Assembly (NCBI GenBank): GCA_000002435.2
Contig: CM018792.1
Direction: 5' to 3' (one strand)
Length of the DNA: 64,000 bases
From: Giardia intestinalis
Lineage: Eukaryota
Part shown: one piece after another, positions 4,561 to 64,000 of the stretch
Layout: each line of letters starts with the position of its first letter
Numbering within the stretch: position 1 is the first letter of the stretch
The notes under the pieces: model-generated
The model's input: the letters and a program-made list of their open reading frames with translations, nothing else
Told to the model about the DNA's origin: nothing
The model's database searches: none
Made by a program: the position numbers and the translations under genes

Positions 4561-5113
4561 GCAGTTATGGATCCTAGCTCTGCTGCAGAAGGTGCCTTAT
4601 GAGACGCAGCACAGCTACACCAAGCGGTATCGGGGCTGAACACTCCTTGGGACGGGCTCCTGGCGCATCTGAGAGACGCTCGTTGCTGTGCACTGCCTCT
4701 TGGGCTTTGAATGCACGTTGTGCAGAGCTGCAGGGGTCGCCCTTGCAGTTGTCGGTGGACCGTTGATGGGATCATTGAAAGCTCTGGACCGCTACTGGGC
4801 CGTGTTGTCCCAGTGCACGTGTGGCAGCTTTGGTTCGCACTGGATGGTCCGCAGAGATTGCAACGGAGCCACGAGGTGCACTAATATGACATACACATTG
4901 AGACAACCGCAGTTCTATTCGGCTCAATCCACCTCCTTCTGGCCCTGTGCCGAGATTGCAGATTGCAGAGTAGTGTTCGCGATAGACCCGGTGAGTGTTG
5001 ATTCCATCAGCGCCTGTGGTCAACGTGTGCCAGAAGGATCAATCAACTGCATCAATCAACGCGGATTGACTGATGTACCGCGAGTATGTTCCTACCAATC
5101 TATCAATCGGGCA

Positions 5114-7324
5114 ATGTTTGGCAGTTTTGTTCTCGCGGGGGTACTCGTCCAGATTGCATGGGCAGAAAAAGTAACAGAGCGCGCGGCTCAATGCGCAGAT
5201 AACACTAATTGCGCAGCAGAAGCATGCAACGTTCTGATCGGTGGTAAATTGTATTGCTCTCAATGTAACACAGGATTTGTTCCTATCAATGGACAATGTG
5301 CAGGCAAAGAAGATGCAAAAACCAAGTGTAAAGATACCGATGGAGGCGATACAGCTGATCAGACCTGTGGACAGTGCGCTGAGCAGACTTTCATGTACAA
5401 GGGCGGCTGTTACGAAGCAGCCCAGCAGCCCGGACAGACCATATGTCAGGCGGCAGAAAATGGAAAATGCACACAGGCTAAGGCTGGATACTTCGTGCCG
5501 CCGGGCGCAGACGCCTCTCACCAATCGGTCATACCGTGCGGAGACGAAGAGGAAATAACGGTTAAGAACGATAAAAAGTACAAGGGCGTAGTGCATTGTA
5601 CTCAGTGTAACGCTCCCGCAGAAGCAGCAGATGCTAACGCCAAGGCCGCCACATGTACTGCGTGCGGCGATAGCAAGATCGTCAAGACGGCCAAGGACCA
5701 AGCCACCTCCTGCGTGACAGAAAAAGAGTGCACGGATGCCCCAGGCTTCTTCGTTGATACGACGAGCGGTAAAAAATGCAGCAAGTGCGCTGAGACATGC
5801 AAGACCTGTAAGACCGAGGCTGCGAAGTGCACCTCCTGTAAGGACGACAAGCCGTACCTGAAGAAGGATGACGAGTCCACAACTGGCACGTGCGTTGACG
5901 CAAACGGCTGCCCGGCAACTCATTACGTTGATAAGGAAGCAAAGGAGTGCAACACCTGCGTTTCAGGAGGGACGGTGGACTGCACCACTTGTGAGAAAGG
6001 CGCCAACGGAGTGGTTTGTAAGACGTGTACGACTGGTACGAAGACCAAGTTTGGCCTTGGAAAGAAGTCATGCGTTGAGAACTGCCCCTCGAACTCCAGC
6101 GATGAAAAGACCCCTGGCACCTGTGAGTGCGTCGAGGGCTACGTTCCCGACGACGCGGGCACCGGGTGTACGAAGAAATCCGACCCCCAGTGCAACACCC
6201 CCGGCTGCAAGACGTGCAGTGATCCGAAGAAAGACAAGGAGGTGTGCACAGAATGCGAAGACCCCAAGGCCCTCACGCCCACGGGCCAGTGCATCGATAA
6301 CTGCGGAGATCTGGGAGGCTACTACGAGGGCACCAACGAGGGGGGCAAGAAGGCCTGCAAGAAGTGCGAGGTCGAGAACTGCCTCCTGTGCAATGGGCAG
6401 GGACAGTGCGAGACCTGCAAGGACGGGTACTACAAGAGCGGAGCCGCCTGTGCCAAGTGCGATACCTCGTGCAAGACGTGCGCGAACGGGAAGCCCAACG
6501 GGTGTACGAGCTGCGAGCCTAAGCAGGTCCTCAGCTACGAAGGGGAGGGCACGGGGACGTACAAACCAGAATGCAAGCCAGTGAGCGGCGGCAAGGATGG
6601 AACGTGCAAGAGCTGCGACCTGAGCATAGACGGGACAAGCTACTGTTCTGCCTGTAACGTGGGCACGGAGTATCCAGAGAACGGTGTGTGCGTCAAGAAG
6701 TCGGCCCGCACAGCCTCCTGCCAGGTCGAACCGAGCAATGGTGTGTGCGGGACATGTGCAAAGGGCTTCTTCCGCATGAACGGGGGCTGCTACGAAACGA
6801 CCAAACTCCCTGGAAAGAACGTCTGTGAGGAGGCAGCACCGACCGGCGATACCTGTCAGACTCCGGCCGACGGGTACAAACTGAATAACGGCGCGCTCAT
6901 CACTTGCTCGGCCGGATGTAAGACGTGCACCAGCCAGGACCAGTGCGACACGTGTAAGGCTGGATATGCTAAGACTGGCGGTAACACTAAGAAGTGCGTT
7001 CCCTGCGCCACTGGGTGCTCCGAGTGCAATGCGGACGACGCCACCAAGTGCACGGTGTGCGCTGCAGGGTACTACCTGTCCAAAGAAAAGTGCATAGCAT
7101 GCGACAAGAGCGACGGCGGATCCATCACCGGCGTCGCCAACTGCGCCAACTGCGCTCCCCCAACCAACAATAAAGGGCCTGTCCTCTGCTACCTCATACA
7201 GAACACCAACAGGAGCGGGCTTTCCACGGGGGCCATAGCGGGGATCTCCGTCGCTGTCATCGCTGTCGTGGGGGGCCTCGTGGGCTTCCTCTGCTGGTGG
7301 TTCATATGTAGAGGGAAGGCGTGA
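5114..7324 (+). CDS. Variant-specific surface protein (VSP), head gene of the tandem array (737 aa; signal peptide, CXXC-rich ectodomain, TM, CRGKA tail)
   Basis: The track ORF begins at 4688, but the VSP-type signal peptide MFGSFVLAGVLVQIAWA begins at ATG 5114 (in frame). There are many CXXC and GGCY motifs. C-terminus is NRSGLSTGAIAGISVAVIAVVGGLVGFLCWWFICRGKA followed by stop. Confidence 0.9.
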   Translation: MFGSFVLAGVLVQIAWAEKVTERAAQCADNTNCAAEACNVLIGGKLYCSQCNTGFVPINGQCAGKEDAKTKCKDTDGGDTADQTCGQCAEQTFMYKGGCYEAAQQPGQTICQAAENGKCTQAKAGYFVPPGADASHQSVIPCGDEEEITVKNDKKYKGVVHCTQCNAPAEAADANAKAATCTACGDSKIVKTAKDQATSCVTEKECTDAPGFFVDTTSGKKCSKCAETCKTCKTEAAKCTSCKDDKPYLKKDDESTTGTCVDANGCPATHYVDKEAKECNTCVSGGTVDCTTCEKGANGVVCKTCTTGTKTKFGLGKKSCVENCPSNSSDEKTPGTCECVEGYVPDDAGTGCTKKSDPQCNTPGCKTCSDPKKDKEVCTECEDPKALTPTGQCIDNCGDLGGYYEGTNEGGKKACKKCEVENCLLCNGQGQCETCKDGYYKSGAACAKCDTSCKTCANGKPNGCTSCEPKQVLSYEGEGTGTYKPECKPVSGGKDGTCKSCDLSIDGTSYCSACNVGTEYPENGVCVKKSARTASCQVEPSNGVCGTCAKGFFRMNGGCYETTKLPGKNVCEEAAPTGDTCQTPADGYKLNNGALITCSAGCKTCTSQDQCDTCKAGYAKTGGNTKKCVPCATGCSECNADDATKCTVCAAGYYLSKEKCIACDKSDGGSITGVANCANCAPPTNNKGPVLCYLIQNTNRSGLSTGAIAGISVAVIAVVGGLVGFLCWWFICRGKA

Positions 7325-7338
7325 CTTAGGTAGTGAAT
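7325..7338 (+). promoter_or_regulatory. Conserved VSP 3' motif/polyadenylation signal (CTTAGGTAGTGAAT; AGTGAAT = AGTRAAY at 7332..7338)
   Basis: Immediately 3' of the TGA; fits the Giardia AGTRAAY polyA signal and the extended VSP 3' motif ACTYAGRTAGTRAAY (recalled from literature). Repeated at 9158-9171, 10991-11004, 12890-12903, 14699-14712, 63830-63843, and as AGTAAAT at 16544-16550. Confidence 0.75.
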
Positions 7339-9157
7339 GCTGTACAGTGATAGTGATAGTGATAGTGCTATGTGGTGTGGGGGTGATAGTGGTGGTGTGG
7401 GACTTTTCTTCATGGGCGGGTGCTACAAGACAGAGAGTCAGCCCGGCAGTGACATATGCACAGCAGCCAGTAATGGAGTATGCACTACTTGTAAGGCAGA
7501 TAACGGCCTGTTCAAGAACCCAGTTACACCTCAGAAGCCTGGTAGCGAGTGCATCCTGTGCTCTGATACTAAGGGAGCAGATGGATATACGGGGGTGGCC
7601 AACTGCCTCAAGTGCACAGAACCAACTAATAGTCCAGGAGCTGCCACGTGCACTGAGTGTCAAGAGGGGTACTATAAAGAGAATAACGAATGCAATCAGT
7701 GTGATCAGTCCTGTCTGACTTGCAGTGGAAGTGGTCCGAATCATTGCACATCCTGTAAGGAGGGGAAGTATCTGAAAAGCGATAATACCTGTTCACCTAC
7801 ATGTGAAGGAAACACTTATGCTGACCCTGTGACAAGGACATGCAAGGAGTCTGGTATAGCAGATTGCACCGCGTGTGAGTACAACACGACTGTCAGCAAG
7901 CCCCAGTGCACCGCCTGTAACAATAAGAAGGTGAAGACAGAGCTGGATGGGACAACCACTTGCGTCGATGATGCTGGGTGCGCAACAGATAACGTCGACG
8001 GATCCCACTTTCTGAGTGATGATAGCACCAAGTGCATATTATGCAGTGATACAACAACAGGAACAGAAGCAAACGACAAGGGGATTGCTAATTGTAAAAC
8101 GTGTAAGAAGAACGGAGCCAAGCCGACCTGCTCAGCTTGCCTCGACGGATACTTTGGTTCTGATACATGCACAGCTTGCGGTGCCAACTGTGCTACATGC
8201 TCTGCTGCTGGCAATGATCAGTGCACTAAATGCAAGCCTGGATTCTTCATGAAACAACCCGGCTCTACTGGTGAGTGTGTTGCTTGCGACAGTAAAGCCG
8301 ACAATGGCATCGAGGGATGCAGTGCATGCACAAACGATGGCGGTGCTTTCAAGTGCACCGATTGCAAGCCCAACTATCGCAAGGAGGGCAGTACTGGCTC
8401 TGTCACATGCACCAAGACCTGTGAAGATGATACTACCTGTGGTGGTACCTCTGGCGCCTGTGATGCCATGATAATAGATGATCAGGGCACCACAAAGCAC
8501 TATTGCTCATACTGTGGGGATAGTTCACAAGCTCCTATCGATGGTCTCTGTGCTACTGATAAGAATGGGAATACTTGTACCAATAATGTCTGTACATCAT
8601 GTACTCAAGGGTACTTCTTGTACATGGACGGCTGTTATAGTACTCAGAGTCAACCTGGTAACCTCATGTGCAAGACAGCTAACAACGGGGTCTGTACAGC
8701 CGTTAATGAGAATAATAAGTACTTCATAGTACCAGAAGCAAAGCCTACTCAGCAGTCTGTACTAGCATGTGGTAACCCATTAGGCACACTAGTAGATACT
8801 AAGGCATATGTGGGGGTGGATGGCTGCTCCCAGTGTACAGCCCCAACAGCTCCATCTGAGGGTGGCATGACCCCCGCTGTGTGTACCTCCTGTGACAGTG
8901 GTAAGAAGCCCAACAGGGATGGCACTGGGTGTGTGACATGCTCTGACACCAACTGCAAGAGCTGTGCGATGGACGGTGTGTGTGGGGAGTGCAACAGTGG
9001 CTTCAGTCTAGACAATGGCAAGTGCGTGTCCACTGGCGCCAACAGGAGCGGGCTCTCCACGGGGGCCATCGCGGGCATCTCCGTCGCCGTGGTCGTCGTC
9101 GTGGGGGGCCTCGTGGGCTTCCTCTGCTGGTGGTTCGTGTGCAGGGGGAAGGCGTGA
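7337..9157 (+). CDS. VSP-family ORF, 5'-truncated cassette (606 aa; no signal peptide; likely pseudogene or silent cassette). Its ATG lies inside the preceding gene's polyA signal
   Basis: Same frame as the head gene. Begins MLYSDSDSDSAMWCGGDSGGVGLFFMGGCYKTESQPG (translation of the microsatellite, then a GGCY module). Ends ...GLSTGAIAGISVAVVVVVGGLVGFLCWWFVCRGKA. Confidence 0.75.
   Translation: MLYSDSDSDSAMWCGGDSGGVGLFFMGGCYKTESQPGSDICTAASNGVCTTCKADNGLFKNPVTPQKPGSECILCSDTKGADGYTGVANCLKCTEPTNSPGAATCTECQEGYYKENNECNQCDQSCLTCSGSGPNHCTSCKEGKYLKSDNTCSPTCEGNTYADPVTRTCKESGIADCTACEYNTTVSKPQCTACNNKKVKTELDGTTTCVDDAGCATDNVDGSHFLSDDSTKCILCSDTTTGTEANDKGIANCKTCKKNGAKPTCSACLDGYFGSDTCTACGANCATCSAAGNDQCTKCKPGFFMKQPGSTGECVACDSKADNGIEGCSACTNDGGAFKCTDCKPNYRKEGSTGSVTCTKTCEDDTTCGGTSGACDAMIIDDQGTTKHYCSYCGDSSQAPIDGLCATDKNGNTCTNNVCTSCTQGYFLYMDGCYSTQSQPGNLMCKTANNGVCTAVNENNKYFIVPEAKPTQQSVLACGNPLGTLVDTKAYVGVDGCSQCTAPTAPSEGGMTPAVCTSCDSGKKPNRDGTGCVTCSDTNCKSCAMDGVCGECNSGFSLDNGKCVSTGANRSGLSTGAIAGISVAVVVVVGGLVGFLCWWFVCRGKA
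7347..7367 (+). repeat. (GTGATAG)3 perfect heptamer microsatellite in the VSP inter-unit junction
   Basis: cagtGATAGTGATAGTGATAGtgc. Identical copy at 12912..12932. Degenerate GGTGATA/GGTGATAG heptamers at 9182-9228, 11015-11058, 14723-14769, 63863-63898. Confidence 0.85.
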
Positions 9158-9220
9158 CTTGGGTAGTGAATGCTGTACAGTGGGTGATAATGGGTGATAG
9201 AAGGTGATAGAGGGTGATAG

Positions 9221-10990
9221 TGGAGTGAGATATGCACACAGGCTAGTGATGGACTGTGCACTGCTTGTAAGGCAGCTAACCAGTACATATTCCAGAACAG
9301 GGCAGAGAGGGTGACCCCTGGTGGGGAGTGCATCCTCTGTCATGATGCCACGGGAGCGAATGAGAACAAAGGAGTGGCTAACTGCCTCAAGTGCACGGCA
9401 CCAGCTAATAGTCCAGGGGCTGCCACGTGTACTGAGTGCATGTCTGGCTTCTCAGGAGACTCGTGTGCTACTCAATGCGGAGGAGACTGTGCCGCCTGTG
9501 ATAAGAGTAACCAAAATCAGTGCACCTCTTGTAAGACTGGGAAGTACCTGAAAGAGAATCAATGTGTGGAAAAAAGTGCATGTAACAACAATCACTACCC
9601 CGATGACACTAGCATGACCTGCGTCGCCTGTAGCACCATACAAGATTGCACAGCATGCACAATGGACCAGTCCACGGGGAAGCCAAAGTGCACTAACTGC
9701 GGTGCCAGTAAGATCCCCAGGACGACTCTCGACGGAACCTCGACCTGCGTGACAAAAGGGTATGATCAGTGTCAAGGCACAGATAAGGAGCTGTTCATGA
9801 AGGAGGACCAATCGGCGTGCTTATTATGCGGAGACAATACTGAGGATACATCTGAGTCCAATAAAAACCAGGGAACTCCTAATTGCAAGACCTGTACCAA
9901 GACAGCATCCACTAAACCGGTCTGTGAGACGTGCAAGGATGGCTTCTTCTTTAATACTGGTGATAAGACATGTACAAACAAGTGCGATGCCACCTGCAAG
10001 ACGTGCTCTGCTGCTACAGATGCTAACCGATGCTTAACTTGTATGCCCGGATACTTCCCCATCGATAGTACAGATCAACAAGGGAAGAAGTGCGTCCCAT
10101 GCGATAGTGTGGACGACAAGGGTCGCGAAGGGTGCAGTGTCTGCTCTAACAATGGTGGATTCAAGTGTACTGAATGTAAGGTGAACTATAAGAAGCAGTC
10201 CAATGGAGATGCAGGGGATGACTATACATGTGTGAAGACTTGTGAAGACCCCACGGCTTGTGGTGGGACCTCTGGCGCCTGCGATGCTATAGTAATCGAC
10301 AATGATGGAGTAGAGCATCATTACTGTTCTTATTGTGGAAATCAAGGAGATGTACCAATCAATGGTATATGCACCAGCTCACTTGCAAGTAATACCTGCG
10401 CCGATGGTGTCTGCAAGTCTTGTGCTCAAGGGTACTTTATGTATATGGGAGGGTGCTATGATGTGTCGAAGGCTCCTGGTAGTCACATGTGCAAGAAAGC
10501 AGATAACAATGGGATATGCACAGAGGCGGCAAGTAATAGGTACTTCGTAGTCCCTGGGGCACAGACCACTGATCAGTCTGTATTAGCCTGTGGCAACCCC
10601 CTAGGCACACTAGTAGGCACTCAAGGTACCGCTAAGGCATACGTGGGGGTGGATGGCTGCTCACAGTGCACAGCCCCAGCAGGTCTGTCTGAGGGTGGCA
10701 TGACCCCCGCTGTCTGTACCTCCTGTGACAATAGTAAGAAGCCCAACAAGGATGGCAGCGGGTGTGTGCTGTGCTCTGACACCAACTGCAAGAGCTGTGT
10801 GATGGACGGTGTGTGTGGGGAGTGCAACAGTGGCTTCAGTCTAGACAATGGTAAGTGTGTGTCCTCTGGCGCCAACAGGAGCGGGCTCAGCACGGGCGCC
10901 ATCGCGGGGATCTCCGTGGCTGTCATCGCTGTCGTGGGGGGCCTCGTGGGCTTCCTCTGCTGGTGGTTCGTGTGCAGGGGGAAGGCGTGA
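9221..10990 (+). CDS. VSP-family 5'-truncated cassette (VSP-like frame opens at 9221 after the last in-frame junction stop; track ORF 9311..10990, 559 aa; no ATG or signal peptide at the 5' end)
   Basis: ICTQASDGLCTACKAANQYIFQN...TPGGECILCHDATGANENKG..., ends ...ISVAVIAVVGGLVGFLCWWFVCRGKA. Near-identical to 14762..16531. Confidence 0.75.
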   Translation, partial: WSEICTQASDGLCTACKAANQYIFQNRAERVTPGGECILCHDATGANENKGVANCLKCTAPANSPGAATCTECMSGFSGDSCATQCGGDCAACDKSNQNQCTSCKTGKYLKENQCVEKSACNNNHYPDDTSMTCVACSTIQDCTACTMDQSTGKPKCTNCGASKIPRTTLDGTSTCVTKGYDQCQGTDKELFMKEDQSACLLCGDNTEDTSESNKNQGTPNCKTCTKTASTKPVCETCKDGFFFNTGDKTCTNKCDATCKTCSAATDANRCLTCMPGYFPIDSTDQQGKKCVPCDSVDDKGREGCSVCSNNGGFKCTECKVNYKKQSNGDAGDDYTCVKTCEDPTACGGTSGACDAIVIDNDGVEHHYCSYCGNQGDVPINGICTSSLASNTCADGVCKSCAQGYFMYMGGCYDVSKAPGSHMCKKADNNGICTEAASNRYFVVPGAQTTDQSVLACGNPLGTLVGTQGTAKAYVGVDGCSQCTAPAGLSEGGMTPAVCTSCDNSKKPNKDGSGCVLCSDTNCKSCVMDGVCGECNSGFSLDNGKCVSSGANRSGLSTGAIAGISVAVIAVVGGLVGFLCWWFVCRGKA

Positions 10991-11059
10991 CTTGGGTAGT
11001 GAATGCTGTACAGTGGGTGATAATGGGTGATAGAAGGTGATAGAGGGTGATAATGGAGT

Positions 11060-12889
11060 GTGATATGTACAGCAGCCAGTGATGGAGTGTGCACTGCTTG
11101 TAACACAGCTAACCAGTACATATTCCAGAACAAGGCTACGACAGTGACCCCTGGTGGGGAGTGCATCCTCTGTCATGATGCCACGGGAGCGAATGAGAAC
11201 AAAGGAGTGGCTAACTGCCTCAAGTGCACGGAACCAAGTGGTAGTCCAGGAGCTGCCACGTGTACAGAGTGTCAAGCAGGGTACTATAAAGATGGTAACG
11301 GTGCATGTGTCAAATGTAATGAAGCTTGTCTGACTTGCAGCGGTGAGGGCGCAACTAAGTGCACCCTCTGTGCGGGCGAGAAGTATCTCGATGGGAATAA
11401 TTGTGTAGATGCTAGCAGTTGTAATGGAGATAAGTACCCCAACCCAAGCACTGGGAAGTGCACAGCTTGTAACGCTGGAGCAGATCAGGGGGGCATACCA
11501 GAGTGCACTGCTTGCACGTACAATGCAAAGCTACAGAAGCCGGTGTGCAGTGCCTGTAACGGTAAGAAGGTGAAGACAGAGCTGGATGGGACAACAACCT
11601 GTGTCGATGATGCTGGGTGCAAAAAAGACAGCACACACTTTGTTGACGATGATAATACTATGTGTGTTCTGTGCAGCGATACCAGCGGAAACGAGCCAAA
11701 TAAGAACAAGGGACTCAAAGGCTGTAAGGCATGTACTAAGCAGTCCAGTAGTCCCCCCACGTGTACCGGATGCTTACCCGGATATTACGATTCCGGCTCG
11801 TTTGTTTGTGAGCTCTGCACAGGGAACTGTGCCACCTGCGAAGGTGCTAATGCTAACCAGTGCCAAACCTGCAAGCCGGGATACTTCCTGAAAGGAGGCC
11901 AAGCACCTGCGGAGTGTGTCGCCTGTGATAGCACCGCCGATAACGGAGTCCCCGGCTGCGCAACATGCACCTTTGATACCATACTAACATGCGACTCCTG
12001 CAAGCCCGACTACAAGCTAACAGGGACTGGGTGTCAAAAGGTCTGTGAGGACACAACGGGGTGTGGTGGTACCTCTGGCGCTTGTGATGCCACAGTGATC
12101 GATGCTAATGGAAAGGAGCTTCACTACTGTTCCTATTGTGGAGAGAGTGGTAAGTATCCTATCGATGGGAAGTGTGTTGATAACGCTCAAAGTAATCAAT
12201 GCGCTGATGGTGTATGTACACAGTGTGCTCAAGGGTACTTTATGTACATGGGCGGGTGCTATAGCACTACCAATGCTCCTGGTAAGTCCATGTGCAAGAC
12301 AGCTGAAGGTGGCAAGTGCACAGCTGCTAATGAGAATAATAGGTACTTCGTAGTACCAGGGGCATCCAACACTGATCAGTCTGTACTAGCATGTGGTAAC
12401 CCATTAGGCACACTAGTAGGCACTAGTAATACTGCTAAGGCATACGTGGGGGTCGAGGGCTGCTCACAGTGTACGGCCCCAGCAGCTCTGTCTGATGGTG
12501 GTATGACTGCTGCTATATGCACTTCTTGTGACAATAGTAAGAAGCCCAACAAGGATGGCAGTGGGTGCTTCACATGTACCATCGATGGATGCTCGCACTG
12601 CAATAGAGACAACATGTGCGAGGCATGTAGTGATGGTAAGAAGGTGAGCCCTGGGAGGAAGTCATGCGTGGATGGCTGCCCCAGCAACTCCACTGATGAT
12701 AACTCTGTCTGTGTGTGCAACGATGGGTACAGCCCTGATGATGCTGGGGCCTCCTGTGTGTCCTCTGGCGCCAACAGGAGCGGGCTTTCCACGGGGGCCA
12801 TAGCGGGGATCTCCGTCGCTGTCATCGCTGTCGTGGGGGGCCTCGTGGGCTTCCTCTGCTGGTGGTTCATATGTAGAGGGAAGGCGTGA
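11060..12889 (+). CDS. VSP-family 5'-truncated cassette (609 aa; GTG alt-start in track, no ATG or signal peptide)
   Basis: VICTAASDGVCTACNTANQYIFQNKATTVTPGGECILCHDATG..., ends ...ISVAVIAVVGGLVGFLCWWFICRGKA. Same frame as the others. Confidence 0.75.
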   Translation: MICTAASDGVCTACNTANQYIFQNKATTVTPGGECILCHDATGANENKGVANCLKCTEPSGSPGAATCTECQAGYYKDGNGACVKCNEACLTCSGEGATKCTLCAGEKYLDGNNCVDASSCNGDKYPNPSTGKCTACNAGADQGGIPECTACTYNAKLQKPVCSACNGKKVKTELDGTTTCVDDAGCKKDSTHFVDDDNTMCVLCSDTSGNEPNKNKGLKGCKACTKQSSSPPTCTGCLPGYYDSGSFVCELCTGNCATCEGANANQCQTCKPGYFLKGGQAPAECVACDSTADNGVPGCATCTFDTILTCDSCKPDYKLTGTGCQKVCEDTTGCGGTSGACDATVIDANGKELHYCSYCGESGKYPIDGKCVDNAQSNQCADGVCTQCAQGYFMYMGGCYSTTNAPGKSMCKTAEGGKCTAANENNRYFVVPGASNTDQSVLACGNPLGTLVGTSNTAKAYVGVEGCSQCTAPAALSDGGMTAAICTSCDNSKKPNKDGSGCFTCTIDGCSHCNRDNMCEACSDGKKVSPGRKSCVDGCPSNSTDDNSVCVCNDGYSPDDAGASCVSSGANRSGLSTGAIAGISVAVIAVVGGLVGFLCWWFICRGKA

Positions 12890-12901
12890 CTTAGGTAGTG
12901 A

Positions 12902-14698
12902 ATGCTGTACAGTGATAGTGATAGTGATAGTGCTATGTGGTGTGGGGGTGATAGTGGTGGTGTGGGACTTTTCTTCATGGGCGGGTGCTACAAGACAGAG
13001 AGTCAGCCCGGCAGTGACATATGCACAGCAGCCAGTAATGGAGTATGCACTACTTGTAAGGCAGATAACGGCCTGTTCAAGAACCCAGTTACACCTCAGA
13101 AGCCTGGTAGTGAGTGCATCCTGTGCTCTGATACGACAGATAGAAACGGGGTCATGGGAGTCGCTGGATGCTCAGAATGCTCCCACACGGGCACTAGCGG
13201 ACCGGCCACGTGTACAGAGTGTCAAGCAGGGTTCGTTACGAAGGACAGTGCATGTGTGAAGTGCGGAGACGGCTGCTCTGCTTGCTCAGCTGATACTCCG
13301 ACTCAGTGTACCGCCTGCGTTGAGGGGAAGTACTTGAAGGGTGGTAACACTTGTGTAGATGCTGGTGGATGTGACAATGGTAACTATGCGGACAAGAAGA
13401 CCTGGACCTGTAAGGCCTGCAGTGAGATACAAGGATGCACCGCGTGTGCATACGACGACGCCACGGGAAAGCCGAAGTGCACCGACTGCGGTAGTAAGAC
13501 GGTCAGAGACGAGCTGGATGGGACAACGACCTGTGTTGATGAGGCCGAGTGCAAAGTGGGCAAGACGCACTTCTACGACGCCTCGAAGTGCGTGCAGTGC
13601 GGCGACAATGGTAAGGGCGGAGTCCAGAACTGCAAGCTGTGCACCGCAAAAGGCACCTGCGAGGCTTGTGTCGACGGGTATAAAGTCAACGGAAACGCCT
13701 GCGAGGCCTGCACAGGAAACTGCGCAGAGTGCGGAACAGCGGGTCAAATCAACACATGTACAAGATGCATGCCGGGGTACTTCCTTAAGGATGGCCCGCC
13801 TAAGACATGCGTTCTCTGTGATGACGAGACAAGTGGGATTCCAGGCTGTGCCGAGTGCACAGGCGGCGTGGGGTCCCTCAAATGCACTGAATGTAAGCCC
13901 AACTACAGACCCAGCGGAGAACCTAGCGACCTCACATGTACAAAGACCTGCGAGGATGAGACGGCGTGTGGGGGTACCTCTGGCGCTTGTGATGCCACAG
14001 TGATCGATGCTAATGGAAAGGAGCTTCATTACTGTTCATACTGTGGAGAGAGTGGTAAGTATCCTATCGATGGGAAGTGTGTTGATAATGCTCAAAGTAA
14101 TACTTGTAACAACCATGTATGTACATCATGTGCTCAAGGGTACTTCTTGTATATGGGAGGTTGTTACAAGGTTGATACAGTACCTGGCAACTATATGTGC
14201 AAGGCATCAAGTAAGGAGGGGATATGCACAGAGGCAGCCAACAATAGGTACTTCGTAGTCCCTGGGGCACAGACCACTGATCAGTCTGTACTAGCATGTG
14301 GTAACCCATTAGGCACACTAGTAGGCACTCAAGGTACCGCTAAGGCATACGTGGGGGTGGATGGCTGCTCACAGTGCACAGCCCCAGCAGGTCTGTCTGA
14401 GGGTGGCATGACCCCCGCTGTCTGTACCTCCTGTGACAATAGTAAGAAGCCCAACAAGGATGGCAGCGGGTGTGTGCTGTGCTCTGACACCAACTGCAAG
14501 AGCTGTGTGATGGACGGTGTGTGTGGGGAGTGCAACAGTGGCTTCAGTCTAGACAATGGTAAGTGTGTGTCCTCTGGCGCCAACAGGAGCGGGCTCAGCA
14601 CGGGCGCCATCGCGGGCATCTCCGTCGCCGTGGTCGTCGTCGTGGGGGGCCTCGTGGGCTTCCTCTGCTGGTGGTTCGTGTGCAGGGGGAAGGCGTGA
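12902..14698 (+). CDS. VSP-family 5'-truncated cassette (598 aa), a mosaic: 5' region equals unit 7337-9157, middle equals unit 11060-12889, 3' region equals units 9221-10990 and 14762-16531
   Basis: Its first about 80 aa and its junction are identical to unit 2. The block CEDETACGGTSGACDATVIDANGKELHYCSYCGESGKYPIDGKCVDNAQSN is shared with unit 4. The C-terminal about 130 aa are shared with units 3 and 6. CRGKA tail. Confidence 0.75.
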   Translation: MLYSDSDSDSAMWCGGDSGGVGLFFMGGCYKTESQPGSDICTAASNGVCTTCKADNGLFKNPVTPQKPGSECILCSDTTDRNGVMGVAGCSECSHTGTSGPATCTECQAGFVTKDSACVKCGDGCSACSADTPTQCTACVEGKYLKGGNTCVDAGGCDNGNYADKKTWTCKACSEIQGCTACAYDDATGKPKCTDCGSKTVRDELDGTTTCVDEAECKVGKTHFYDASKCVQCGDNGKGGVQNCKLCTAKGTCEACVDGYKVNGNACEACTGNCAECGTAGQINTCTRCMPGYFLKDGPPKTCVLCDDETSGIPGCAECTGGVGSLKCTECKPNYRPSGEPSDLTCTKTCEDETACGGTSGACDATVIDANGKELHYCSYCGESGKYPIDGKCVDNAQSNTCNNHVCTSCAQGYFLYMGGCYKVDTVPGNYMCKASSKEGICTEAANNRYFVVPGAQTTDQSVLACGNPLGTLVGTQGTAKAYVGVDGCSQCTAPAGLSEGGMTPAVCTSCDNSKKPNKDGSGCVLCSDTNCKSCVMDGVCGECNSGFSLDNGKCVSSGANRSGLSTGAIAGISVAVVVVVGGLVGFLCWWFVCRGKA

Positions 14699-14761
14699 CT
14701 TGGGTAGTGAATGCTGTACAGTGGGTGATAATGGGTGATAGAAGGTGATAGAGGGTGATAG

Positions 14762-16531
14762 TGGAGTGAGATATGCACACAGGCTAGTGATGGACTGTGC
14801 ACTGCTTGTAAGGCAGCTAACCAGTACATATTCCAGAACAAGGCTACGACAGTGACCCCTGGTGGGGAGTGCATACTGTGCCATGATGCCACGGGAGCGA
14901 ATGAGAACAAGGGAGTGGCTAATTGCCTCAAGTGCACGGCACCAGCTAATAGTCCAGGGGCTGCCACGTGTACTGAGTGCATGTCTGGCTTCTCAGGAGA
15001 CTCGTGTGCTACTCAATGCGGAGGAGACTGTGCCGCCTGTGATAAGAGTAACCAAAATCAGTGCACCTCTTGTAAGACTGGGAAGTACCTGAAAGAGAAT
15101 CAATGTGTGGAAAAAAGTGCATGTAACAACAATCACTACCCCGATGACACTAGCATGACCTGCGTCGCCTGTAGCACCATACAAGATTGCACAGCATGCA
15201 CAATGGACCAGTCCACGGGGAAGCCAAAGTGCACTAACTGCGGTGCCAGTAAGATCCCCAGGACGACTCTCGACGGAACCTCGACCTGCGTGACAAAAGG
15301 GTATGATCAGTGTCAAGGCACAGATAAGGAGCTGTTCATGAAGGAGGACCAATCGGCGTGCTTATTATGCGGAGACAATACTGAGGATACATCTGAGTCC
15401 AATAAAAACCAGGGAACTCCTAATTGCAAGACCTGTACCAAGACAGCATCCACTAAACCGGTCTGTGAGACGTGCAAGGATGGCTTCTTCTTTAATACTG
15501 GTGATAAGACATGTACAAACAAGTGCGATGCCACCTGCAAGACGTGCTCTGCTGCTACAGATGCTAACCGATGCTTAACTTGTATGCCCGGATACTTCCC
15601 CATCGATAGTACAGATCAACAAGGGAAGAAGTGCGTCCCATGCGATAGTGTGGACGACAAGGGTCGCGAAGGGTGCAGTGTCTGCTCTAACAATGGTGGA
15701 TTCAAGTGTACTGAATGTAAGGTGAACTATAAGAAGCAGTCCAATGGAGATGCAGGGGATGACTATACATGTGTGAAGACTTGTGAAGACCCCACGGCTT
15801 GTGGTGGGACCTCTGGCGCCTGCGATGCTATAGTAATCGACAATGATGGAGTAGAGCATCATTACTGTTCTTATTGTGGAAATCAAGGAGATGTACCAAT
15901 CAATGGTATATGCACCAGCTCACTTGCAAGTAATACCTGCGCCGATGGTGTCTGCAAGTCTTGTGCTCAAGGGTACTTTATGTATATGGGAGGGTGCTAT
16001 GATGTGTCGAAGGCTCCTGGTAGTCACATGTGCAAGAAAGCAGATAACAATGGGATATGCACAGAGGCGGCAAGTAATAGGTACTTCGTAGTCCCTGGGG
16101 CACAGACCACTGATCAGTCTGTATTAGCCTGTGGCAACCCCCTAGGCACACTAGTAGGCACTCAAGGTACCGCTAAGGCATACGTGGGGGTGGATGGCTG
16201 CTCACAGTGCACAGCCCCAGCAGGTCTGTCTGAGGGTGGCATGACCCCCGCTGTCTGTACCTCCTGTGACAATAGTAAGAAGCCCAACAAGGATGGCAGC
16301 GGGTGTGTGCTGTGCTCTGACACCAACTGCAAGAGCTGTGTGATGGACGGTGTGTGTGGGGAGTGCAACAGTGGCTTCAGTCTAGACAATGGTAAGTGTG
16401 TGTCCTCTGGCGCCAACAGGAGCGGGCTCAGCACGGGCGCCATCGCGGGGATCTCCGTGGCTGTCATCGCTGTCGTGGGGGGCCTCGTGGGCTTCCTCTG
16501 CTGGTGGTTCGTGTGTAGAGGGAAGGCGTAG
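14762..16531 (+). CDS. VSP-family 5'-truncated cassette, near-identical duplicate of 9221..10990 (track ORF 14852..16531 encodes the identical 559-aa product); terminal unit of the array
   Basis: ORF-track proteins for 9311..10990 and 14852..16531 are identical. Ends CRGKA + TAG, then AGTAAAT polyA signal (16544..16550). No further junction follows. Confidence 0.75.
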   Translation, partial: WSEICTQASDGLCTACKAANQYIFQNKATTVTPGGECILCHDATGANENKGVANCLKCTAPANSPGAATCTECMSGFSGDSCATQCGGDCAACDKSNQNQCTSCKTGKYLKENQCVEKSACNNNHYPDDTSMTCVACSTIQDCTACTMDQSTGKPKCTNCGASKIPRTTLDGTSTCVTKGYDQCQGTDKELFMKEDQSACLLCGDNTEDTSESNKNQGTPNCKTCTKTASTKPVCETCKDGFFFNTGDKTCTNKCDATCKTCSAATDANRCLTCMPGYFPIDSTDQQGKKCVPCDSVDDKGREGCSVCSNNGGFKCTECKVNYKKQSNGDAGDDYTCVKTCEDPTACGGTSGACDAIVIDNDGVEHHYCSYCGNQGDVPINGICTSSLASNTCADGVCKSCAQGYFMYMGGCYDVSKAPGSHMCKKADNNGICTEAASNRYFVVPGAQTTDQSVLACGNPLGTLVGTQGTAKAYVGVDGCSQCTAPAGLSEGGMTPAVCTSCDNSKKPNKDGSGCVLCSDTNCKSCVMDGVCGECNSGFSLDNGKCVSSGANRSGLSTGAIAGISVAVIAVVGGLVGFLCWWFVCRGKA

Positions 16532-16718
16532 ATGTACTTAGGTAGTAAATGCGTCGACCGTGTTCAAGCTGTCAGGTGTTGTGGCATATACTTGTGAAGC
16601 TCGTCTGGTACTGGGATTTATAGACTTCCATCTAATTACCACGAACAGATAAATTTCTAAAAAACTCGCCGCTTGGGACTTCGAGGCTTTTATTAGTTAG
16701 CTTAGGCATTTCTAGGCA

Positions 16719-50928: not shown

Positions 50929-51855
50929 TCAGGGGGCACCTGACCCCAGGGCGGCCCGCAGGCCCGCGACCTCCCCCCGGAGCCGGGCGACCTCGTCCTC
51001 CAGGGCCTTGAAGCGCAGGGCCGTCGCGACCGCAGGCGCCCCGCCCTCTGCGTCGAGGAGCTCCACGAGGGCCGCGGCGGTGAGGCGGCGCTCCGGCTCC
51101 AGGACGAGGAGGTGGGCGAGGACGCCCCGGACGACGGGGTCCCCGACCGCGCCCAGGTCCGGCCGCCAGCCCGCGACGTAGACCTCCGCGGGGGCCCGCC
51201 CGGAGAGGAACGGGGGCCTGCCGCCCGCCGCGAGCTCGTAGGCGACCATCCCGAGGCTCCACATGTCCGCGGCCGGCGTGTGGCTCCCGCCCCGCAGGAC
51301 CTCCGGCGCGGCGTAGACGGGGACGGCCATGGAGGCGAGCCCCCCGGGGCCCTCCCTGCAGAGCCCGAAGTCGGAGATGGCGAACTCCGCCCCGGCCTCG
51401 TCGAGGAGGACGTTCGCGGGCCGCAGGTCGCAGTGCGTGAGGGCGGGGAGCGGGGCGCCCGCGGCGTCGGTCTTCCCGGGCCGGTGGAGGTAGGCGAGCC
51501 CCGCGCCCACCTGGCGGAGGACGGCGACGACCATCTCGCGCGGGGCGAGCTGCCTTCTGCGGCGGAGGCTCCGGATGGCCCCGTCGAGGGAGCCTGCGTA
51601 GCGCCGCATCTCGACGTAGATGTAGCCCTCGTGCCGGACGACGCGCCCGTACTCGACGACGTTCGGGTGGCGGAGGCGCGGGAGGGTCCGGAGCTCGAGC
51701 TCGAGCGAGGCCTGCGCGTCGGGGGGCAGCCCGTCGGTCGGGATCTCCTTGACCGCCCGGTCGGGGGCGCTCTTCAGGCCGTAGACGGTCCCGTGGGCCC
51801 CGCTCCCGAGCTCTGCGCCCAGGTCTTCGAGGAGGGCGTCGATGGCCTCGGACAT
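50929..51855 (-). CDS. Ser/Thr protein kinase (NEK-like) with C-terminal coiled coil; extremely GC-rich coding sequence
   Basis: LGSGAHGTVYGLKS, AVKEI, HCDLRPANVLLD, DFGLCREG, APEVLRG, WSLGMVAYEL; C-terminal LEDEVARLRGEVAGLRAALG. Initiator gcggattaaaaagATG. Region 50.9-52.1 kb is about 70% GC. Confidence 0.8.
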   Translation of the reverse strand: MSEAIDALLEDLGAELGSGAHGTVYGLKSAPDRAVKEIPTDGLPPDAQASLELELRTLPRLRHPNVVEYGRVVRHEGYIYVEMRRYAGSLDGAIRSLRRRRQLAPREMVVAVLRQVGAGLAYLHRPGKTDAAGAPLPALTHCDLRPANVLLDEAGAEFAISDFGLCREGPGGLASMAVPVYAAPEVLRGGSHTPAADMWSLGMVAYELAAGGRPPFLSGRAPAEVYVAGWRPDLGAVGDPVVRGVLAHLLVLEPERRLTAAALVELLDAEGGAPAVATALRFKALEDEVARLRGEVAGLRAALGSGAP

Positions 51856-60077: not shown

Positions 60078-61374
60078 ATGGACACTGCCTTGTCTGGGTC
60101 TGCAACAACAGCTGTCAGTGTCCCACCGTTCACCCCTAGGGAGGTTCATGAGCGGTTAGGTGATGTGCTTAATGAAAACACCATGGGGACAGTCTACTCT
60201 CTCAAAGCTATCTGGGCCTCGCTGTAAAGGTCATTCAGCTTGGAGACCTGGACAAGGATGACGTGGAAATCATCAGACTAGAGCTGACCACCCTCCCCGA
60301 CCTCTCCAACCCAGGGGTTCTCAGGCACCACCAGGTGCTTACGGACGAGGGCTTCACCTACATCGTCATAGACCGCCACGACAAGACCCTCGAGCGCCTC
60401 CTTATAGAGCACAAACGAAGGAAGACTCTCATCCCTATCGCTGTGATCCTCTCCGCCATGAAGCAGGTCGCTGCCGCCCTCGCCTACCTCCACGGCCTCA
60501 GCGAGGTAAGTGCTAACAGGCTTGTCCACCGCGACCTCAGGCCTACCAGCATCCTTATCAGCGCAGACGGAGAGCGCTTCGTCATTGCTGATTTCGGCCT
60601 CTGTAAGGACGCCCTGTGGAGTGGGAGCACTCTCATGGGAATAATGGCGTACATGGCCCCCGAGGTGCTCCTCCGTAATGAGACCAGCCCTGCTTCCGAC
60701 GTGTGGAGCCTCGGGGTCATCCTCTACGAGATGGCCACTCTAAGGAAACCGGACTTCCTAGAAGGTAAAGACCCAGCAGAGGTCTTCGTGACGGGTGGAG
60801 GCCGGACCTGAGCGGTGTCACTGATGGCTTCATAAAGAGTGTTCTGGAGAGGATACTCGTGCTGGAGCCAGAGAGGAGGCCGATGGTCAGGGAGCTGCAC
60901 GAGACGCTCGCTACATTCGACATCCCAGTTAGTGAGCTGGGGCATCGGTGTGTGGCGCTAGAGGACAAGTGCAGCGCCTTGGAGACTGCGATGAGTAATA
61001 TTAATGACAGGATTGCTATTCTTGAGGCGGCCCTCGAGAGCAAGCCGACCAGGGACCGCGCCGAGCTCTGGATGCATCGATGGAGAGGAGCTCTTAGTAT
61101 GTTATCCACAACCAGCCATCGTCTCCGGACGGTCGAGAAGTGGGCGCAGCTTACCCATGAGACCTCTGAGCGCACCTGCAGGCGGGCCCAGCGATACAGC
61201 GACAGCAATGTACAGGAGTGCGCCCCGAACAATCACTCCACAAAGGTGCGTTCTGAGTCTGGCCCTCACCGATCCTGTTCCTATCGAAGCCAGGGGGAAC
61301 TGCGCTATCAGCCGACCTCTGGTGGGTGTGCTCCTATCTTGTCCTTCTCCAGTACAACTGATCAAGGAGAGTAA
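60078..61374 (+). pseudogene. Frameshifted NEK-like protein kinase, a paralogue of 50929..51855, with two -1 frame changes (near 60197-60227 and near 60793-60808)
   Basis: Segment 1 (frame 0, ATG 60078): ...VHERLGDVLNENTMGTVYSLKA then stop. Segment 2 (track ORF 60263..60811): ...LAVKVIQ...HRDLRPTSILI..DFGLCKD..APEVL..WSLGVILYE...AEVFVTGG then stop. Segment 3 (track ORF 60859..61374): GWRPDL...LVLEPERRPMVREL plus coiled coil. The joined sequence is collinear with the GC-rich kinase. Shift sites fall in a (CT)3 run and a GGG run. Confidence 0.5.
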
Positions 61375-61447
61375 GAGCGGCTGTCTCTCACTGCTCGCGG
61401 CAACACACCAGCCTGACGGAAGAGCAGTGGCACGTGTACTCCGGCTA

Positions 61448-63829: not shown

Positions 63830-64000
63830 CTTAGGTAGTGAATGCTGTACAATGTGTGATAGAAGGTGATAGTGGGTGATAGTGTGATAATGGAGTGTGA
63901 TATGTACAGCAGCCAGTGATGGAGTGTGCACTGCTTGTAACACAGCTAACCAGTACATATTCCAGAACAAGGCTACGACAGTGACCCCTGGTGGGGAGTG
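63830..64000 (+). other. VSP junction module (3' motif + heptamer repeats) followed by the start of another 5'-truncated VSP cassette running off the right edge
   Basis: The sequence after 63829 is near-identical to junction 10991-11170 (..GGTGATAG.. repeats, then SVICTAASDGVCTACNTANQYIFQNKATTVTPGGEC). Confidence 0.7.

Follow-up and report, generated by a model that had tools for sequence, protein, structure and literature searches.

A vsp linear array of Giardia lamblia WB chromosome 4: repeat-unit anatomy, coding constraint and mosaic structure

One complete head gene and five 5'-truncated units

The window, i.e., the whole stretch of 64,000 nucleotides analysed here, contains six VSP units arranged head-to-tail at positions 5114-16531 of the plus strand, on which all features described below are located. 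A complete head gene is followed by five 5'-truncated copies. The locus lies on chromosome 4 of Giardia lamblia WB and was previously catalogued as a "VSP linear array". Adam et al. (2010, BMC Genomics 11:424) named such loci "linear arrays" and described them as at least two adjacent head-to-tail vsp genes separated by short spacers (60 bp on average, up to 241 bp), of which the first has a normal upstream region and an initiator (Inr) and the downstream members have no Inr. Their table flags vsp92-94 and vsp103-105 as LA, on chromosome 4. Counted from their first ATGs, units 1-6 encode 852, 606, 516, 409, 598, and 516 amino acids; all six lengths agree with vsp92-94 and vsp103-105, as do their order, the chromosome, and the LA flags. 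The preliminary description had presented the array as new, but the 2010 catalogue of vsp genes already contains this exact locus (Adam et al., 2010). The GL50803 numbers given below were assigned by length match and not through GiardiaDB sequences. Literature searches under gene IDs or GenBank accessions returned nothing relevant.

Unit 1 (5114-7324; vsp92/GL50803_137606 by length match) is a complete VSP gene of 736 amino acids, which had earlier been annotated with 852 residues from an upstream ATG at 4766. Its initiator, CAATGTT at 5112-5118, is the sole match to PyAATGTT on the plus strand between 4 and 17 kb. The signal peptide MFGSFVLAGVLVQIAWA reaches an 8-residue Kyte-Doolittle maximum of 3.05, and the protein contains 28 CXXC motifs and matches the Pfam VSP family with an E-value of 1.6e-141. 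A signal peptide (Xu et al., 2020; Rodriguez-Walker, 2022) and a PyAATGTT initiator are features of a complete, expressible VSP. As in the published linear arrays, the normal upstream region and the Inr are found in unit 1, and the Inr is missing downstream.

Unit 2 has an ORF at 7337-9157 (606 residues; vsp93/GL50803_114065 by length match), which matches at 100% a VSP of G. lamblia ATCC 50803 from an older RefSeq release (XP_001706653.1). Its cassette spans 7399-9157, homology to full-length VSP DNA beginning at 7399 with an FLFMGGCY motif, and it has neither a signal peptide nor an Inr. Unit 3 (9221-10990; vsp94/GL50803_112009, 516 residues, by length match) comprises 589 open codons with the first ATG at 9440, and its homology to full-length VSPs begins at 9221 with a GSDICT motif. 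Unit 4 (11054-12889; vsp103, 409 residues, by length match) has 611 codons with the first ATG at 11660. Unit 5 (cassette 12964-14698, ORF 12902-14698 of 598 residues; vsp104/GL50803_114653 by length match) has the same junction and ATGs as unit 2, and unit 6 (14762-16531; vsp105, 516 residues, by length match) is a near copy of unit 3.

None of units 2-6 has a PyAATGTT initiator in the same plus-strand search of 4-17 kb. By the crude hydropathy measure used as signal-peptide test (8-residue Kyte-Doolittle), the stretches following their in-frame methionines reach at most 1.79, compared with 3.05 and 3.09 for the head genes of this array and of a second one at the right edge of the window. Units 3, 4, and 6 had been described as having no ATG near the 5' end, which agrees with first in-frame ATGs at codons 74, 203, and 74. 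For unit 2, the only ATG had been placed inside the upstream polyA signal. The first ATG (7337) indeed overlaps the AGTGAA hexamer, but two more in-frame ATGs follow at codons 12 and 26. A signal-peptide exon spliced to the cassettes was also considered and rejected: no CTRACACACAG-type (Giardia) splice acceptor was found near the cassette starts, and relaxed matches occurred only far inside the cassettes.

The 3' ends present a different picture, and all six units were found, as previously noted, to carry a complete C-terminus with a TM segment, CRGKA, a stop codon, and an extended polyA signal. Each unit contains 24-28 CXXC motifs and 70-87 cysteines and matches Pfam VSP (PF03302), with E-values from 2e-34 to 1.6e-141. 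Two main statements of the preliminary description are thereby borne out: only unit 1 has a VSP signal peptide and its own initiator, and the locus comprises one complete gene with five probably silent, 5'-truncated cassettes instead of six independent genes. By their sequence, the cassettes are unable to make a surface protein on their own. The motifs, together with the behavior of the corresponding arrays of G. muris (see below), suggest that they are silent.

Junction types and the shared reading phase

The five junctions between units reduce to two related types, which we call A and B. The type A filler of 74 nt (7325-7398) has no homology to full-length VSPs; it consists of an extended polyA signal (7325-7340), TGTACA, and a G/T-rich, (GTGATA)n-like filler, whose three frames read SDSDSD, VIVIVI, and TGA/TAG stops. 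A copy of it is located at 12890-12963. The type B filler of 63 nt (9158-9220) combines the extended polyA signal with four to five copies of a 10-bp GGTGATAnnn repeat and contains six in-frame stops; further type B fillers are found at 10991-11053 and 14699-14761. The extended polyA signal reads CTTrGGTAGTGAATGC in units 1-5 and ACTTAGGTAGTAAATGC in unit 6, where the terminal signal ATGTACTTAGGTAGTAAATGC at 16532-16552 is followed by unique sequence. A conserved anchor lies 129 nt after the stop codon in type A and 72 nt after it in type B. After each stop, the reading frame opens again at a distance of 12 nt in type A and 63 nt in type B, in line with the short spacers of linear arrays. A scan of metagenomes for the junction motif gave no matches, and there were no Rfam matches within the window.

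A second linear array begins at the right edge of the window. Its head VSP (61448-63829; vsp95) starts at a TAATGTT initiator, carries a signal peptide, and contains six perfect 225-bp repeats. It is followed by a type B-like junction, homologous to the type A and B junctions, and the start of the first cassette (63830-64000). Upstream, the two head genes show no homology to each other.

The stop codons of the six units end at 7324, 9157, 10990, 12889, 14698, and 16531, giving stop-to-stop spacings of 1833, 1833, 1899, 1809, and 1833 bp. Recomputing these positions reproduced the earlier observation that all six ORFs share one frame (coordinate mod 3 = 2) with spacings that are multiples of three. 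The interpretation of this phase relation as an organizing principle did not hold. The junctions are copies of two types, stops lie between the units, and the neighboring array is out of phase: the anchor offset at its junction at 63830 is 70 nt, 2 nt shorter than in type B, and its first cassette is +1 out of phase with its head. In isolate DH, a junction with an anchor offset of 117 nt is in phase; the loci compared from isolates P15, GS, and DH contain single VSPs or pairs only. When copied junctions are counted once per type, the few independent junctions sampled in the window are in phase in two of three cases, for which P(≥2 of 3 | 1/3) = 0.26. The shared phase does not exceed chance and is a by-product inherited through duplication, not a design feature. 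Otherwise, the multiples of three say no more than that every cassette is an intact ORF. Types A and B would both happen to equal 0 mod 3, a value that hexamer slippage would preserve and duplication would copy.

A functional role of the layout, be it read-through translation, a polycistronic product, or selection to keep recombinants in frame, might be suspected from the five in-phase junctions out of five in this array and the in-phase DH junction. We regard it as extremely improbable. The phase has no way to take effect because the units are separated by 3 in-frame stops in type A and 7 in type B, the unit's own stop counted, and because homologous crossover would preserve the frame whatever the spacer length. 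Duplicated junctions of two related types and the out-of-phase second array argue in the same direction.

Mosaic structure and the probable role of the cassettes

The array has a mosaic structure. By self-BLAST, the tract at 7206-7569, which runs through the conserved 3' module and the type A junction into the first ~170 nt of the following cassette, is 99.7% identical to 12771-13134, i.e., the tail of unit 1 with the head of unit 2 matches the tail of unit 4 with the head of unit 5. Over 1833 bp, units 3 and 6 are distinguished by 15 positions, which are clustered; their central ~1.59 kb is identical, and their flanks differ. Unit 5 is a chimera whose ends resemble unit 2 and whose middle differs. 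By protein-level comparison, residues 40-154 of unit 5 (13019-13363) are identical at 111 of 115 positions to the intact VSP GL50803_00114674 (GL50803_114674), located on another contig of 1.97 Mb. Outside this tract and the conserved C-terminal end, the two proteins are mostly 45-75% identical. The near-identical tract lends support to possible exchange between cassettes and intact genes, in either direction and of any age.

The head gene stands apart from the cassettes. Self-BLAST found no significant tract common to the body of unit 1 (5114-7205) and the cassettes, identity between units 1 and 4 begins abruptly at 7206, and dS between unit 1 and the cassettes is 2.2-2.9. Because only the last 119 bp are common to both, the head gene is not the cassettes' expression site. 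The reading of the head gene as an expression site supplied by this array was thus rejected; the head gene shows no cassette-derived tracts that would speak for such feeding.

All five cassettes retain 589-611 stop-free codons, and their centers are only 40-60% identical at the nucleotide level. Pairwise dN/dS among the cassettes is 0.30-0.33 at dS of about 1, values that come from a recombining, partly saturated alignment. Cysteine columns are conserved at 67 of 70 positions, compared with 189 of 475 for other columns. The cassettes thus diverged under coding constraint, which could have been acquired before they entered the array.

Taken together, the locus is probably a vsp linear array of one intact, expressible VSP gene and five promoterless psiVSP cassettes that serve as an exchange reservoir, the common phase being a by-product. 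The head would be independently expressible; the cassettes have no promoter, signal peptide, or 5' end. The repeating unit comprises the previous unit's extended polyA signal, 47-58 nt of GTGATA-type filler, and VSP coding sequence that sets in at about residue 79-106 of a full-length relative and extends to the stop after TM-CRGKA. The array probably expanded as such units underwent tandem duplication and unequal crossing-over, and it is joined to an unrelated head gene only via the conserved 3' TM module. Gene conversion among the cassettes and with intact same-clade VSPs elsewhere presumably lets them persist as intact, constrained ORFs, providing a sequence reservoir over evolutionary time. 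Such a donor or reservoir role, one of those proposed in the preliminary description, is the best supported: the mosaic tracts are consistent with it, and it is the published hypothesis for this locus class (Adam et al., 2010; Xu et al., 2020; Rodriguez-Walker, 2022). Downstream members were proposed to be silent recombination cassettes or a reservoir by Adam et al. (2010), and such members are annotated as psiVSPs, in psiVSP arrays, by Xu et al. (2020, Sci Data 7:38).

Discarded vsp-gene remnants were the alternative offered for the downstream members by Adam et al. (2010). That the cassettes are dead and without any role would fit the missing start codon, signal peptide, and initiator, as well as the frameshifts and stops present in other psiVSPs of the genome. 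We nevertheless consider it unlikely, given that all five remain free of stops over 589-611 codons despite their divergent centers, that dN/dS is about 0.3 with almost fully conserved cysteines, and that tracts are common to cassettes and an intact VSP. The same intact, constrained ORFs could instead belong to real genes expressed from non-canonical starts; the older RefSeq entered unit 2 as a VSP starting at the ATG inside the polyA signal, and the filler of another array encodes an ATG-initiated hydrophobic peptide in frame with the cassette (XP_001707663). This seems very unlikely, since the cassettes lack an Inr, none of their in-frame methionines is followed by a signal-peptide-like segment, the first ATG of units 3, 4, and 6 is 74-203 codons away, such entries have been re-annotated as psiVSPs in the current reference, and the arrays of G. 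muris are reported to be non-transcribed.

Small RNAs in both directions have been reported in the literature for VSPs and VSP-like tandem repeats, and cassettes and intact VSPs share long tracts; the array might therefore be mainly a source of read-through or antisense RNA feeding RNAi-type VSP silencing, which would be compatible with a reservoir role. Yet nothing in the sequence speaks for it, Rfam included, every unit has its own polyA signal that should stop read-through, and the G. muris arrays are reported to be silent, making this a rather improbable main function. It is about equally improbable that units 2-6 owe their number or order to an assembly artefact. The 1.59 kb of perfect identity between units 3 and 6, short-read assemblies that break at the array edge with contigs ending at 16500-16687, and the splitting of the locus over two contigs in the 2010 assembly might raise this suspicion. 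On the other hand, units 3 and 6 differ at clustered positions and in their flanks, the Sanger-era catalogue independently lists two 516-residue members along with those of 606, 598, and 409 residues in a compatible order, and six independent datasets agree on the distal boundary.

A more active version of the reservoir, in which segmental gene conversion between such arrays and intact clade-I VSP genes such as GL50803_114674 would be frequent enough, in culture or during infection, to create new antigen variants, seems unlikely to us. If true, G. intestinalis would use recombinational diversification besides epigenetic or RNAi-based switching. Unit 5 and GL50803_114674 form a concrete candidate pair bearing on whether psiVSP arrays feed the expressed repertoire.

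Relation to known antigen-gene arrays

The locus class and its organization are already known, and nothing essential differs from the WB linear arrays. As an example of a documented organization of Giardia antigen genes, the locus changes little. To the published description we add the exact truncation breakpoints (7399 and 9221), the GTGATA filler, the phase relation, dN/dS, the mosaic structure, and the tract common to unit 5 and GL50803_114674. Their value is modest and lies in the base-level anatomy of the repeat unit, the coding constraint of the cassettes, and one candidate exchange partner.

The closest counterparts outside G. lamblia are the telomere-adjacent psiVSP arrays of G. muris, which are reported to be non-transcribed and to engage in gene conversion with intact VSPs (Xu et al., 2020, Microb Genom 6:mgen000402). 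They likewise consist of tandem head-to-tail VSP copies without signal peptides. However, nearly all of them are located at chromosome ends and comprise 5-23 genes, whereas the present array lies inside a chromosome, is short, and begins with an intact VSP from another clade.

In the vls system of Borrelia burgdorferi, promoterless, truncated cassettes lie head-to-tail in one orientation next to the complete vlsE and serve as donors in segmental gene conversion. These cassettes run together as an almost continuous ORF, have no 3' ends of their own, and convert the adjacent vlsE during infection. The likeness extends to promoterless, truncated, one-orientation cassettes beside a complete gene, but in the Giardia array no unit has lost its stop, TM domain, or polyA signal. 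A vls-like expression site would share both flanks with the cassettes and carry cassette-derived tracts; the head gene here has only 119 bp in common with the cassettes and contains no converted tracts.

The subtelomeric VSG pseudogene arrays of Trypanosoma brucei are large silent archives of incomplete antigen genes, which contribute to mosaic VSG formation as donors for segmental conversion into expressed genes, a somatic use that has been demonstrated. They have 70-bp flanking repeats, and most of the array genes carry frameshifts or stops. The Giardia array resembles them as a silent archive of incomplete antigen genes; the gene family and the flanking repeats differ, and all five cassettes are intact ORFs. 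Antigen switching in Giardia is held to be epigenetic or post-transcriptional, and somatic use of such archives has been demonstrated in trypanosomes, not in Giardia.

Six VSP reading frames and a single initiator

Six VSP-type reading frames, all with coordinate mod 3 = 2, appear on the + strand of the array at 5114-16531, both in the ORF list and when stop codons are scanned directly. The stop codons end at 7324, 9157, 10990, 12889, 14698 and 16531 (units 1-6, i.e., the complete head and five 5'-truncated cassettes), and the stop-to-stop distances of 1833, 1833, 1899, 1809 and 1833 bp reproduce the shared frame and the spacings claimed in the preliminary description. All six units match the Pfam VSP family (PF03302), and the C-terminus of each is the conserved TM segment with CRGKA. 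The stop is followed by CTTrGGTAGTGAATGC in units 1-5 and by ACTTAGGTAGTAAATGC in unit 6, and the complete C-terminus, stop and polyA signal ascribed to each unit were indeed seen in all six.

Between 4 and 17 kb, the only + strand match to the PyAATGTT initiator (Inr) lies at 5114, in unit 1. Only unit 1 begins with a hydrophobic signal peptide (8-residue hydropathy maximum of 3.05), whereas the maximum at the in-frame methionines of units 2-6 never exceeds 1.79, with no signal-peptide-like segment among them, as expected if an own initiator and signal peptide are limited to the first unit. Units 3, 4 and 6, described as lacking an ATG near the 5' end, reach no in-frame ATG until codons 74, 203 and 74, respectively. 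However, the ATG within the polyA signal is not the only one of unit 2, as had been stated, because two more follow in frame at codons 12 and 26; unit 5 shares both the junction and the ATGs of unit 2. On the - strand, antisense ORFs of up to 558 aa cover the VSP bodies, even across the junction between units 1 and 2 (e.g., 6068-7744), probably as an artefact of VSP codon composition.

XP_001706653.1 (“VSP [Giardia lamblia ATCC 50803]”) has 100% identity to the ORF of unit 2, which places the window in isolate WB. Counted from the first in-frame ATG, units 1-6 comprise 852, 606, 516, 409, 598 and 516 aa, an exact match in the same order to vsp92, vsp93, vsp94 and vsp103-105 (Adam et al., 2010). 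Additional file 1 of that study places all six on chromosome 4 and flags them as “LA”, with vsp92 (GL50803_137606) flagged as the first of a linear array; vsp93 and vsp94 are 114065 and 112009. Upstream of the true PyAATGTT start of this head and of the head of a second array, about 147-151 in-frame codons are free of stops (4673-5113 and 60995-61447), which accounts for the 852 aa formerly annotated for vsp92 and for the “no Inr” flag on it. Between these two stretches, no homology was detectable.

Junctions and the common reading phase

Every junction consists of an extended VSP polyA signal with TGTACA and a G/T-rich filler, which leads directly into internal VSP coding sequence. In the type A junctions (units 1 to 2 and 4 to 5), the filler is (GTGATA)n-like, and comparison with full-length clade-I VSP DNA of other isolates sets the breakpoint at 7399, at the FLFMGGCY motif. 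In the type B junctions (units 2 to 3, 3 to 4 and 5 to 6), the filler repeats a 10-bp GGTGATAnnn unit four to five times, and VSP homology starts from 9221 at the GSDICT motif. As both fillers share the 3' end GGGTGATAGTGG, type B looks like type A minus about 55 nt plus a 2-nt filler change. Alignments of the cassette proteins begin at residues ~79-106 of full-length relatives, so that the cassettes have neither the signal peptide nor the first Cys-rich module.

The hexamer filler reads SDSDSD in the cassette frame, VIVIVI without an ATG in another, and TGA/TAG stops in the third. At 7341-7398 and 12906-12963, the +1 frame of the (GTGATA)n filler encodes the very hydrophobic peptide VIVIVIVLCGVGVIVVVW, again without an ATG. 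In another WB array, vsp60 of the old annotation (XP_001707663) begins with MIVLCGVLCSVGDSDS, a hydrophobic peptide that the filler encodes from an ATG in the frame of the cassette, and this could be a de novo signal-peptide-like start. Isolate GS (assemblage B, three loci on AHHH01 contigs) has head-to-tail VSP runs with a different fixed truncation point, whose units start with VNDPAGVSIDSLCRP; many have a frameshifted C-terminus (…ISVTKSS…) replacing TM-CRGKA, and near-complete VSPs follow with V at the start-Met position.

The one new element of the preliminary description was the preservation of the reading phase. The distance from the stop to a conserved anchor (ATATGYACA) is 129 nt in type A and 72 nt in type B, each a multiple of three. 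With 99.7% identity between 7206-7569 and 12771-13134, the type A pair are copies of each other, and the same holds among the three of type B, so that the five junctions amount to at most two related events. The second array serves as a natural control inside the same window: at its type B-like junction, the anchor offset is 70 nt and the cassette is in frame +1 relative to the head. Two of three independent junctions are in phase, an unremarkable outcome (P(≥2 of 3) = 0.26 at p = 1/3). A junction with the type A breakpoint in isolate DH has an offset of 117 nt, two hexamers below WB; hexamer slippage thus conserves the phase automatically, as slippage of the 10-mer would not. The common phase also has no obvious use, since three (type A) or seven (type B) in-frame stops, the unit's own included, intervene between units and the frame is kept in homologous recombination between units at any spacer length. 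Beyond this, the multiples of three only restate that each cassette is an intact ORF. Phase preservation is therefore not beyond chance plus inheritance and, as a special feature, is contradicted by the neighbouring array.

This second linear array corresponds to vsp95/vsp96 of Adam et al. (2010). Its head (vsp95, 61448-63829, + strand) has a TAATGTT initiator, and after the junction and the first cassette start (63830-64000, + strand) the array runs off the right edge of the window. A 225-bp unit occurs six times inside the head (61511-62866), with 100% identity among the copies. The bidirectionally transcribed tandem-repeat RNAs named “Girep” have units of 222-228 nt homologous to VSP repeat units, one of them of 225 nt (Chen et al., 2009), a likeness in unit length. 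Elsewhere in the window, a 308-aa protein kinase ORF (50929-51855, - strand; Pfam Pkinase 4.3e-32) is embedded in a 1-kb block whose GC content is 74%, against ~45-49% on either side, a striking local composition anomaly.

Constraint, mosaicism and the head gene

The centres of units 2-5 share only 40-60% nucleotide identity, whereas identity rises to 86-100% at the ends that span the junctions. For cassette pairs, dN/dS is 0.30-0.33 at a dS of about 1, and of the ungapped columns, all four distinct cassettes conserve 67 of the 70 with Cys compared with 189 of 475 others, which indicates divergence under protein-level constraint and not decay. Apart from their own old annotation, no relative among the best 120 database matches exceeds 68% identity; the cassettes are thus not recent copies of intact genes. 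Units 3 and 6 differ at only 15 of 1833 positions, clustered at the ends, and 8403-10988 resembles 13932-16529. Unit 5 has ends like unit 2 with a different middle. By these comparisons the array is a mosaic.

Residues 40-154 of unit 5 (13019-13363) are identical at 111 of 115 positions, in a protein-level comparison, to GL50803_00114674, which is located on a 1.97-Mb contig and is one of the 136 complete VSPs listed by Rodriguez-Walker et al. (2022). Outside this tract and the conserved C-terminal end, the two are mostly 45-75% identical. Units 3 and 4 reach only 38-57% identity to this VSP across the same 40-residue windows, so conservation of the region alone does not account for the tract. 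It is the signature expected if a cassette and an intact VSP gene exchanged segments, in either direction.

The body of unit 1 (5114-7205) shares no significant tract with the cassettes. Identity between units 1 and 4 sets in abruptly at 7206, where the conserved TM-proximal module starts, and extends across the junction. Unit 1 belongs to clade II and the cassettes to clade I; more generally, Inr-bearing array heads are mostly clade II and downstream members nearly all clade I (Adam et al., 2010). The abrupt onset together with the clade split suggests that recombination within the conserved 3' module brought head and array together. We rejected unit 1 as an expression site fed by its own cassettes, given the late onset of identity, a dS of 2.2-2.9 to the cassettes and the different clade. 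The partners of the cassettes are likely intact clade-I genes elsewhere.

Alternative readings and known VSP arrays

Five intact and constrained ORFs are difficult to reconcile with the cassettes being pure junk. Their independent expression is contradicted by the lack of an Inr and a signal peptide, by type B cassettes without any nearby ATG, and by the current annotation, in agreement with the preliminary description that these are not six independent genes. A signal-peptide exon spliced onto the cassettes is unlikely, as a search near their starts found no Giardia-type splice acceptor motif. The array might also be a putative RNAi trigger; against this stand an Rfam search of the window, which gave no matches, and the polyA signal that each unit has of its own.

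The array is unlikely, in its main lines, to be an assembly artefact. The same members, the two 516-aa copies among them, appear independently in the Sanger-era catalogue, and the flanks of units 3 and 6 are distinct. Six independent short-read assemblies reproduce the distal boundary, breaking at 16500-16687, where the identity between units 6 and 3 ends. The copy number itself is provisional.

The array was accurately observed, and its reading as silent cassettes is the standard hypothesis for a catalogued locus of a well-described class. Our additions are incremental and refine this known array: the breakpoints, filler structure, constraint estimates, head/cassette discontinuity and the candidate exchange tract with GL50803_114674. 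Adam et al. (2010) defined linear arrays, which hold more than half of the vsp repertoire with spacers averaging 60 bp; at the first gene, the upstream region is often normal and an Inr present, and every downstream member lacks the Inr. Such copies have been named a sequence reservoir (Rodriguez-Walker et al., 2022). The G. muris genome paper reported arrays of psiVSPs (copies without the signal peptide) as essentially non-transcribed, with recombination or gene conversion between them and intact VSPs, and credits the earlier description of such arrays in G. intestinalis. Both the object and its main interpretation were thus already published.
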